Positions 1,704 to 2,905 of a DNA stretch of 31,634 nucleotides are shown piece after piece. Below the pieces are notes generated by a model that worked only from the letters and a program-made list of their open reading frames with translations, searched no databases and was not told the origin of the DNA. Origin of the DNA: a virus; the IMG/VR virus record IMGVR_UViG_3300029915_000104. One strand, written 5' to 3'. How positions within the stretch are numbered: position 1 is the first letter of the stretch; every line of letters starts with the position of its first letter. The position numbers were made by a program, and so were the translations under genes.

Positions 1704-1870
1704 CATGAAGTTCGATCAAACCAAACGGTTGACCCAACCCGATCGCCAGCATACACTCTGGTGTGCGATCTGACACGAGTTGCAGGCCATGATCGCAACC
1801 GAGGCTGCGCACGGTCACGAGAATCGATCACAGGACGATCACGAAGGGCGACGAAAACAGTAGGTGTCAC

Positions 1871-2133
1871 CCGAAATGGCTACGAAAAGGTTATGCTGAG
1901 GGACAAATAGCTACGATTCAGTCAGTCAGAGGCGGCTACGAAAAGGTTATGCTGAGGATGGCGGCTACGAAAAGGCTACGGTAAAAGCTCTAGGTCGGCC
2001 TTGGCCTTGGCGTCAACGCCAGTCACACATTGTGGCGGCTACGAAAAGGCTACGAAAAGAGCGGACGTCCCCAGGCGTCGATCCCCGGCTATGAACAGTC
2101 ATCCTCTTGATGGCTACGAGAACTACGATTCCT
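1871..2133. repeat. Left array of GGCTACGAAAAGG motifs (plus orientation).
   Basis: Copies at 1878-1901 and 1934-1957 form an identical 24-mer, GGCTACGAAAAGGTTATGCTGAGG. Further copies at 1963-1981 (GGCTACGAAAAGGCTACGG), 2037-2060 (tandem GGCTACGAAAAGGCTACGAAAAGA) and 2112-2130 (degenerate). An isolated copy lies at 131-141. Confidence 0.85.
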
Positions 2134-2343
2134 TTGGGACTGGCGGGCGCTCTCGATGATCTGCCCTGGATAGAAGGTCGCCGCAATCTCTCGCGCCCGC
2201 TTGGGATTGGGCGACACATCGATCGCCACCACGTGATCGTTCATGTCCACGATGTCGAACCACATGTTCTCCGGATTGAGTCGCGCGTGATAGTGCAATG
2301 AATGTTTTCGCTCGGTGATTTGCAAAAGTTCTCGCAGGGTCAT
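2089..2343 (-). CDS. Hypothetical 84-aa protein lying between the two oppositely oriented repeat arrays. Candidate small DNA-binding protein.
   Basis: ATG at 2343 (cat at 2341-2343), sequence MTLRELLQITERKHSLHYH... Balanced composition. The longer ORF-track version (2089..2703) runs through repeat copies and is rejected. No RBS was found. Confidence 0.3.
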   Translation of the reverse strand: MTLRELLQITERKHSLHYHARLNPENMWFDIVDMNDHVVAIDVSPNPKRAREIAATFYPGQIIESARQSQRNRSSRSHQEDDCS

Positions 2344-2380
2344 GCAAGTATTTAGTCTTTGGCGGCACAAGATGTTAAAG

Positions 2381-2842
2381 TTTGTCGTAGCCATCCACCA
2401 TACCGGGTGACTGGAGCTTCGTCGTGCGCGGACTCTCATGATTTTAGTAGCCATCCATCGGATGGCTGCATCCGATCGTCCCCCATTTGAGGTCTTCCGT
2501 TTCCGTAGCCAGCCAAACAAGATGGATGACTGTAATAGCGCCTTTGCTATCATGCCGTGCAAATACTTCCCGGAATGGTCGTAGGCAACTCCCCTTCCTT
2601 TTCGTAGCCACAGGAGTGGCTGCATCCCATCAGCCCGTGTAGCCGCTACGCAAGCCAGTTTTCGTAGCCATTCGAACAGGAATGACTGCATCCCGGATAC
2701 CAACGGGGTGACGGCTCAGCAGATTTTTGTAGCTGTCGGCGTTTTCGTAGCCACCTAAATGCGAATGCGTCTTTTCGTAGCCATCCCGATCGAGGATGAC
2801 TGATTCATTATCCCAAGGCTGCGCCTGCTGCTTTTCATAGCC
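2381..2842. repeat. Right array of 9 copies of TTTTCGTAGCCA, the reverse complement of the left-array motif. Most copies sit in roughly 32-nt composite hairpin units.
   Basis: TTTTCGTAGCC-like copies at 2381, 2442, 2500, 2599, 2659, 2725, 2742, 2773 and 2832. Partner element GGATGRCTGCATCC at 2460-2473, 2521-2532, 2613-2627, 2679-2693 and 2794-2807. In each full unit AGCCATCC pairs with GGATGGCT/GGATGACT, for example 2449-2456 with 2460-2467 across a 3-nt loop. Spacing is irregular at 35-100 nt. Confidence 0.85.
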
Positions 2843-2872
2843 ATACAGGTTTTAATATCAAAGAGCAGGCGC
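2817..2872. other. Long imperfect palindrome just downstream of the MVP stop. The left arm is GCGCCTGCTGCTTTT (2821-2835); the right arm is AAAGAGCAGGCGC (2860-2872). A TTTTCATAGCCA repeat copy lies in the 24-nt loop. Candidate terminator or structured RNA.
   Basis: GCGCCTGCT and AGCAGGCGC are exact reverse complements (9 bp), followed by a further 4 bp after a 1-nt bulge. There is no clean U-tract on either strand. Confidence 0.4.
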
Positions 2873-2905
2873 TGTTATACCAATGGTCCGGCGCAGGTCA
2901 ACCGG

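Follow-up and report, generated by a model that had tools for sequence, protein, structure and literature searches.

What kind of element packs many related repeats, pointing in opposite directions, into about 1 kb of a viral genome, and does it work as DNA or as RNA? The question is raised by IMG/VR virus record IMGVR_UViG_3300029915_000104, a stretch of 31,634 nt (hereafter the window, meaning the whole stretch analyzed), in which a preliminary description had noted two iteron-like repeat blocks on either side of an open reading frame (ORF) of 84 amino acids, ORF84, and had interpreted them as an origin or partition site bound by the small protein or, alternatively, as a cluster of structured small RNAs. 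Its gene content identifies the source of the window as a huge myophage. The answer we arrive at is that the locus belongs to a CRISPR locus of this phage that is devoid of cas genes, and is not a replication origin or partition site, and that the repeats in the window are very probably diverged copies of the phage's own 36-nt CRISPR repeat.

Within the window, the 11-nt core GGCTACGAAAA is matched 17 times with at most one mismatch, compared with 0.28 matches expected, and none of 100 shuffled sequences reached 17. All 17 cores are confined to positions 52-2842, with seven on the plus strand at 1847-2122, eight on the minus strand at 2382-2842, and two more on the plus strand at 52 and 131. 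The plus-oriented left array and minus-oriented right array of the preliminary description are therefore real, as are the switch of orientation across ORF84 (2089-2343, minus strand), the isolated copy at 131, to which the copy at 52 is now added, and the two identical copies of a 24-mer, GGCTACGAAAAGGTTATGCTGAGG, at 1878-1901 and 1934-1957. The repeated element had been given as a 16-nt core present about 15 times in 1 kb; the cluster stands, but what is conserved is the 11-nt core together with CAGYC upstream, and not a 16-mer. A covariance model built from the units (R1, from alignment A1 described below) gave 13 window matches with E < 0.01, all of them between 31 and 2805, and none elsewhere in the window. 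The repeat features of the window are listed here, with the evidence for each in brackets.

31-63, plus strand: diverged CRISPR-repeat unit GTGCAGTCATCCCGTTGGCATGGCTATGAAAAT (R1 36.3 bits, E = 4e-10; core match).
113-142, plus strand: diverged CRISPR-repeat unit TTTCAGTCACCCTTGGGCGGCTACGAAAAC (R1 38.2 bits; core match).
1847-2123, plus strand: left satellite array with seven cores (R1 15-35 bits).
2381-2805, minus strand: right satellite array with seven units (R1 30-40 bits for six units; hairpins; gaps).
2817-2872, no strand assigned: palindrome of 13-14 bp (sequence reading; R1 only 8.9 bits).

The unit at 31-63 is part of a long plus-strand field that enters the window from the left, and that at 113-142 is its final unit ahead of a plus-strand ORF at 276-602. 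The left array comprises units at 1855-1889 (weak), 1916-1945, 2017-2048, and 2093-2123, the last with a 7-bp hairpin, and copies of the tail alone at 1963-1973 and 2048-2058. In the case of the right array, the units lie on the minus strand at 2771-2805, 2741-2770 (weak), 2658-2691, 2598-2625, 2499-2535, 2441-2471, and 2381-2416, separated by gaps of 0, 49, 32, 62, 27, and 24 nt, three of which are in the range of 24-32 nt. The palindrome carries a minus-strand core (2832-2842) in its AT-rich loop, as the preliminary description had it.

What these units derive from is indicated by the DNA to the left of the window. A scan of public metagenomes for two cores 6-36 nt apart returned four contigs (L107, L100, L088, and L095) that share 99.7-100% identity with the window's left end where they overlap it and that reach 13,963 nt further left. 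At about -2476 to -1556, on the plus strand, they contain a regular array of 15 near-identical copies of the 36-nt repeat GGTGCAGTCACCCTATCGTTGGGTGGCTACGAAAAC, with a period of 66 nt (63-67) and spacers of about 30 nt that are all distinct; near-identical direct repeats, a fixed period, and unique spacers qualify it as a CRISPR array on the usual structural criteria. To the right of this canonical array the repeat continues in diverged form for about 45 more units, up to +142. Variants of the repeat GGTGCAGTCACCCTATCGTTGGGTGGCTACGAAAAC are CACGCACAGCCCTCGTTTGTAGGGCTACGAAAAC and GGGATGCAGYCATYC…GGCTACGAAAAS. Three genes then break up the field, at 276-602 (plus), 659-913 (plus), and 910-1668 (minus, encoding an ADP-ribosyltransferase of the ART-PolyVal family), and the left (plus) and right (minus) arrays are its last two blocks, converging on ORF84. 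In the 45.6-kb composite sequence there are 61 cores, every one of them inside a single field of about 5.5 kb that holds about 60 units, so that the family is strongly local within this sequence. The 1-kb cluster that it described does exist, but is merely the right end of this larger field, which starts to the left of the window.

Among the diverged units, several are still separated by 29-32 nt, matching the spacing of about 30 nt in the canonical array, which fits an origin as integrated spacers. The two blocks inside the window, with diverged units and gaps of 0-71 nt, are not regular arrays if taken by themselves. Similarity searches returned little beyond the phage itself: BLAST of the region, the array, and three repeat variants against phage and plasmid collections gave no match; Rfam, at the gathering threshold and at E ≤ 5, gave nothing for the window and the canonical array, including no CRISPR-DR family; a tRNA and tmRNA scan found none; and a protein search with a spurious ORF that reads through the array returned only contigs of the same phage.

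The relationship between the canonical repeat and the diverged units shows in their anatomy. Read along GGCTACGAAAA, a unit has the layout NNN-CAGYC-(upper stem)-loop-(upper stem)-GGCTAC-GAAAAS, consisting of an 8-bp hairpin (CAGYC…GGCTA) and the tail ACGAAAAS of 8 nt. In the fold of the canonical repeat (-13.6 kcal/mol, z = -2.95), a stem of 8 bp (AGUCACCC/GGGUGGCU) closes a loop of 7 nt and is followed by the 8-nt 3' tail ACGAAAAC, which is the stem-loop with short 3' tail characteristic of processed class 1 and type VI repeats. Each unit of the right array has the same CAGYC-stem-loop-stem-GGCTAC-GAAAAS order and folds like the canonical repeat with a loop of 3-7 nt, the loop length across all units being 3-15 nt. 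The hairpins that had been described for the right-hand units are upheld by RNA folding, with stems of 5-9 bp (9 bp in 2771-2805, 8 bp in 2658-2691 and in 2441-2471, 6 bp in 2598-2625), though two of them, in 2381-2416 and 2499-2535, are interrupted. Scores with the unit model, which itself includes the canonical repeat, are 24-43 bits.

Conservation along the unit is far from even. When the 40 non-canonical units are compared with the canonical repeat, the 5' base of the stem (CAGTC) retains 78-95% identity and the 3' stem base together with the tail (GGCTACGAAAA) retains 82-100%, whereas the upper stem retains 38-68%, the loop 10-45%, and the first three and last positions 20-55%. The stem keeps its pairing through these changes. 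In alignment A1, which contains 26 distinct units from three phages, 88% of the cells are paired, compared with 20-47% in slid registers, and 15 cells show a change on both sides of the pair, compared with 5.7±2.3 in shuffles, a value that 0 of 500 shuffles reached; pair 9-25 is AU in 15 units, CG in four, and GC in one, and pair 10-24 is CG in 10 and UA in eight. The R1 model gave 50 matches on the full locus of one strain (L156), and the 41 distinct units of the present phage alone show 14 two-sided changes, compared with 7.2±2.5 in shuffles (reached by 1 of 500), these being counts over paralogous units that were found by the core, selected partly for CAGYC, or aligned with the model. A fixed stem base and tail, a free loop, and an upper stem that changes in a compensated manner constitute the pattern expected of recognition by a repeat-specific RNase, and are unlike uniform decay.

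The strand that is transcribed cannot be read from the stems, where the asymmetry between G·U and C·A pairs does not settle the matter because, whichever way it is read, the canonical repeat contains a single wobble and a single mismatch. We infer the orientation of the units from the position of the perfect block relative to its diverged trail, from the 8-nt tail, and from units in two other phage contigs (L154 and L004, see below) that stand after a gene or before a start codon.

The arrays are set among the following genes and signals.

910-1668, minus strand: ART-PolyVal (ADP-ribosyltransferase) gene (Pfam PF18760, E = 7e-24).
1729-1757, plus strand: candidate sigma-70-like promoter, TTGACC-17-TACACT (consensus scan, 9 of 12 positions).
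2089-2343, minus strand: ORF84 (called in six strain variants; codon usage).
2906-5428, minus strand: major-vault-protein-like (MVP) gene (Pfam MVP_shoulder, E = 5e-18; also Vault_3).

The space from the MVP stop codon (2906) to the start codon of ORF84 (2343) holds the right array, which runs in the sense direction and whose last unit ends 37 nt ahead of the ORF84 ATG. The left array is antisense to every neighboring gene, and the last codons of ORF84, which sits between the two converging arrays, overlap the unit at 2093-2123. ORF84 is probably a real gene, given that its GC content at codon positions 1/2/3 (0.57/0.39/0.66) is like that of the neighboring genes and that its in-frame codon score is the best of three; it has no homologue, no Pfam, PHROG, or PADLOC match, and no match to a DNA-binding domain. 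The palindrome at 2817-2872 is located 34 nt past the MVP stop codon. Neither strand has a T-run after it, as a canonical intrinsic terminator would, and its role is possibly that of a hairpin for RNA 3'-end formation or stability. The candidate promoter at 1729-1757 could, from its sequence and position, promote rightward transcription of the left array, in antisense to ORF84.

Upstream of the canonical array there is a motif, CGTTCTTTGACA (minus strand of L088 at about 1985-1996, or roughly -2590 in window coordinates), which is absent from the window. The same motif occurs at 3229-3241 and 4084-4096 of L005, a contig of an unrelated temperate element, directly upstream of solitary units and of a mini-array, and may be a promoter or leader element common to the huge phage and the temperate element.

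Taken together, the explanation that we consider best, and hold with reasonable though limited confidence, is that the blocks are satellite arrays of CRISPR-repeat-like RNAs that are bound or cut by a Cas RNase and that act as CRISPR RNA (crRNA)-like molecules or as decoys. This is close to the second option of the preliminary description, a cluster of structured small RNAs, which is retained as to structure while transcription itself is inferred. Under this scheme the arrays would be transcribed, the right array with the MVP-ORF84 message on the minus strand and the left array from a plus-strand promoter of its own, and the hairpin with its 8-nt tail would be bound or cut by the cognate repeat-specific RNase, either of the Cas6 type or a self-processing effector such as Cas13. 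The genes of the cognate CRISPR-Cas system would lie in the host or in another part of the phage. The resulting RNAs would be crRNA-like, with irregular and mostly short guides, or would serve purely as decoys, and they would load or titrate Cas proteins in the way that the viral Racr and Cracr RNAs do. That the units still function as crRNA-like or decoy RNAs, rather than being fossils, seems to us only somewhat the better supported view.

The fossil alternative is accordingly the one that has to be weighed most carefully. In this view one or more CRISPR arrays have left behind their old end as decaying units without function, which three gene insertions and an inversion have broken up and which are inert today; we consider it unlikely but by no means negligible. 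Degeneration of repeats at the trailer end is a known property of CRISPR arrays. Most hairpins of the left array are eroded, its tail-only tandems look like decay, it contains the local 24-nt duplication, and gaps across the field run from 0 to 97 nt. No cas family was found in ORFs from -14 to +41 kb with Pfam, PHROGs, PADLOC, and the precomputed Pfam annotation of called genes, the genome being at least 259 kb in size, and a rightward walk past the window found no cas gene within +10 kb. Six more assemblies from other samples carry the locus (L156-L161, at least 99.3% identical, on contigs of up to 259 kb), and the canonical array gives no sign of new spacer acquisition among these strains and hence no spacer turnover; the sole difference is that one strain is without a single internal repeat-spacer unit (L156 at 7579-7645 compared with the composite at about -2212 to -2083), the arrays being otherwise identical. 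The strain variants are so alike, with at least 99.9% identity over the field, that they do not speak for constraint. Neither the canonical spacers nor the pseudo-spacers between diverged units have a match in 50,697 phage records or in the fetched loci, and comparison with all fetched loci and with the rest of the phage gave only chance 14-15-mers. The promoter is weak, the sigma-70-like scan having returned 4 sites in the region against 2.2 expected, which is barely above background. All of these points weigh against a functional reading, as do the detection bias carried by the conservation and covariation counts and the derivation of the latter from paralogous units of a few genomes.

Neutral decay, however, should erode all 36 positions alike, and this is not what the units exhibit, with stem base and tail at 78-100% identity and the loop at 10-45%, although this contrast could stem partly from the way units were detected. 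The upper stem, moreover, changes by compensatory pairs, model scores do not drop with distance from the canonical array, and two unrelated phages carry diverged units of the same kind. It is on these grounds that we prefer functional crRNA-like or decoy RNAs over fossils.

Very unlikely, in our estimation, is a third reading, in which the units are elements akin to repetitive extragenic palindromic (REP) sequences, consisting on the other strand of GTTTTC-GTAG-hairpin, and either moved by REP-associated tyrosine (RAYT, or Y1) transposases or serving to stabilize mRNA. The reverse complement of the unit is indeed GTTTTC-GTAG-CCACCC…GGGTGACTGC, in which GTAG forms the foot of an imperfect palindrome, and the extragenic units are found in either orientation. 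A bacterial contig (L114; ODAK010060530.1, 1900-2700) contains an IS200/RAYT-like gene of 183 amino acids with GTAG-palindrome doublets ending in CTACGAAAAC on both sides, and its palindromes are followed by 16-nt tandems, GGGCTACGAAAACCCAG, that are identical at 30 of 32 positions to a tail-only tandem in L005 (4124-4168), suggesting the possibility that this contig represents a link between REP elements and the present CRISPR repeat family. The L114 palindrome, though, scores only 18 bits with the unit model, compared with 25-43 bits for true members of the family. Fifteen identical repeats with unique spacers of fixed length are, furthermore, the signature of Cas1-Cas2 integration and not that of REPs; there are zero units outside the single 5.5-kb field in 45.6 kb and no inverted doublets at fixed spacing, and no Y1 transposase was found in the approximately 55 kb examined.

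Less likely still is that the units are punctuation for RNA processing or regulation, at which a repeat RNase, encoded by phage or host, cuts to separate or regulate the flanking messages, with no guide or decoy role. The sense orientation of the right array between MVP and ORF84, with its last unit 37 nt before the start codon, would suit such a role, as would a unit in L004 that precedes a ribosome-binding site and ATG by about 17 nt, and the position of the unit at 113-142 ahead of the ORF at 276-602. Seven or more consecutive units are nonetheless far beyond what a processing site needs, and the left array is antisense to all the genes around it.

The least credible reading takes the repeats for iterons that the 84-amino-acid protein would bind at a replication origin or centromere, as the preliminary description had first proposed, or at a pac site: two opposed blocks of dense repeats around a small ORF do superficially resemble the layout of P1 incC/incA and R1 parC, but the repeat is the phage's own CRISPR repeat, its hairpins covary around loops of 3-15 nt when sites bound as duplex need no intramolecular pairing, no Rep, Par (ParA or ParB), or terminase gene is adjacent (the neighbors being ART-PolyVal and MVP), DnaA boxes number 5 against 4.6 expected over the window with none in 1800-2900, GC is 0.49-0.59 across 1800-3000 with no AT-rich stretch or skew inflection (cumulative skew reaches its minimum near 6000), relatives have nothing comparable next to their MVP gene, and ORF84 has no family, DNA-binding domain, or homologue that would support the proposed binding.

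The genome around the repeat field is that of a large tailed phage. Between 910 and 29657, every long gene is encoded on the minus strand. The window codes for a baseplate wedge protein that shares about 40% identity with its counterparts in Atu_ph07, Phosso, and 121Q, as well as for a baseplate hub and a virion protein, and the wedge gene is followed directly by an ORF of 3545 amino acids (6261-16898, minus strand). The ART-PolyVal gene and the two small plus-strand ORFs (276-602 and 659-913) are the genes that interrupt the repeat field, and a second, weaker ART-PolyVal gene occurs about 6 kb past the right end of the window (L167, 3418-4053). The final part of the window (30000-31634) has a lower GC content of about 0.505 and no convincing ORF on either strand, and in a longer contig it precedes a gene of 944 amino acids with a faint LAGLIDADG match. 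The MVP of the window is about 37% identical to a homologue in uncultured phages of 462-735 kb, and 4679 MVP homologues were found at E ≤ 1e-20, many of them on contigs of 0.2-0.6 Mb that resemble huge phages. A search of IMG/VR based on MVP gave no relatives. The nearest relatives, identified by MVP proteins 74, 71, and 60% identical (one on a contig of 400 kb), have neither a unit nor conserved neighbors beside the MVP gene, which makes the locus accessory and not part of the phage backbone. A 69-nt periodic repeat near the MVP gene of the 462-kb phage LR756500 (L163, 20443-21822) was set aside as leucine-rich-repeat coding sequence and not a CRISPR array.

Two further places, both on contigs of unrelated phages, harbor units of this family, with scores of 19-39 bits. 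The first (L004/L005) is a 22-kb temperate element with a large serine recombinase, and it carries a mini-array of CACGCACAGCCCTCGTTTGTAGGGCTACGAAAAC as well as solitary units that stand directly after the shared CGTTCTTTGACA motif and follow TTGACA; in L004 one unit is found about 17 nt ahead of a ribosome-binding site and ATG. The second (L154) is a 34-kb fragment of a large phage that encodes IF3, ClpX, and Hsp20 and has seven units. One sample, JGI 3300045771, yields both a contig with such related units (L004/L005 or L154) and a contig of the present phage. Most other loci returned by the two-core scan proved to be unrelated, consisting of coding KKAT repeats (L001-3 and L006), minisatellites, and 37-nt palindromes, with scores of at most 23.6 bits in the unit model. 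Arrays of the last kind, in L055, L084, L101, L132, L151, L142, and L073, are composed of 37-nt near-perfect palindromes, TTTTCGTAGCCC-N13-GGGCTACGAAAA, which place the core on alternating strands, have an 11-mer in common with the window units, and score at most 21 bits.

What the field might be for, if the units are functional, can be stated more boldly, although we advance it only tentatively: the field of about 60 units would be a working CRISPR array extended by dozens of diversified, structure-preserving mimics, forming a high-copy, recombination-resistant RNA sponge or a multiplexed crRNA-like array that captures or reprograms host Cas proteins. Were this so, the locus would far exceed in size any RNA-based anti-CRISPR or Cas-hijacking locus yet described, with smaller versions in unrelated phages of the same habitat. 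Functional units would further mean that phages scale CRISPR-repeat RNA mimicry from single decoys to dozens of units, and that diversification of the repeat, with a conserved stem base and tail and a free loop and upper stem, is a natural route to many copies without recombination; they would help to define the minimal recognition code of an uncharacterized repeat RNase, with possible use in non-repetitive guide arrays. If the units are only fossils, the locus would instead provide a clear case of CRISPR trailer decay inside a virus, and a warning that iteron-like repeat clusters in phages may be CRISPR debris.

Several known systems serve as comparators. Repeats of Cas13a (type VI-A) systems and of Cas6-processed class 1 systems resemble the present one in having a 36-nt repeat, spacers of about 30 nt, and a stem-loop followed by an 8-nt tail. 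Cas6 systems leave an 8-nt 5' handle. The tail ACGAAAAC is one base off the Cas13a tail ACUAAAAC, and the string GGGGACUAAAAC, present in 91 Cas13a papers, is used throughout the Cas13a literature; with 8 nt and a general architecture as its basis, this resemblance is a lead to follow and not a typing of the system. REP/REPIN-RAYT elements are likewise similar on the opposite strand, with a GTAG foot before an imperfect palindrome, an extragenic location, and a hairpin whose structure is preserved, and unlike the present units in that the latter are clustered, have a regular repeat-spacer form, lack inverted doublets, and have no RAYT gene in the sequence seen.

In known CRISPR arrays, degeneration is usually limited to the final repeat or two. 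The present phage differs from virus-borne arrays without cas genes in carrying about 45 diverged repeats over about 4.5 kb, on both strands and interleaved with genes, while the regular phage-borne array with no adjacent cas genes is just what has been described for such arrays and mini-arrays (Faure 2019; Medvedeva 2019; reviewed in PMC11656645), of which huge or jumbo phages are the typical carriers.

The closest functional comparators are two kinds of viral RNA. Cracr elements are viral arrays of diverged repeats with pseudo-spacers of 21-24 nt that are processed by Cas6 into crRNA-like RNAs and silence cas promoters, and they are reported with 2-3 spacers only (Liu et al., bioRxiv 10.1101/2024.10.29.618823). 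The right array, with its diverged units and gaps of 24, 27, 32, 49, and 62 nt, is similarly array-like in a virus, and its block size is different, as there are 7-8 units per block here and about 45 in all. Racr elements are solitary viral repeats that inhibit type I-F, I-C, I-E, and V-A systems through dose-dependent competition for Cas6/Cas7 (Camara-Wilpert et al. 2023, PMC10651486), and the search tool of that study discards repeats clustered within 100 bp (PMC10651486). The window units are arrayed, 0-71 nt apart and beside a true array with the same repeat, unlike Racrs, which are solitary by definition, though the related element in L005 does have solitary units directly after a TTGACA motif. 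In common with Racrs, the window units are encoded by a virus away from cas genes and are CRISPR-repeat-like in both sequence and hairpin, as judged by model score and fold, and since inhibition by Racrs is dose-dependent, the many copies in the present field would make sense.

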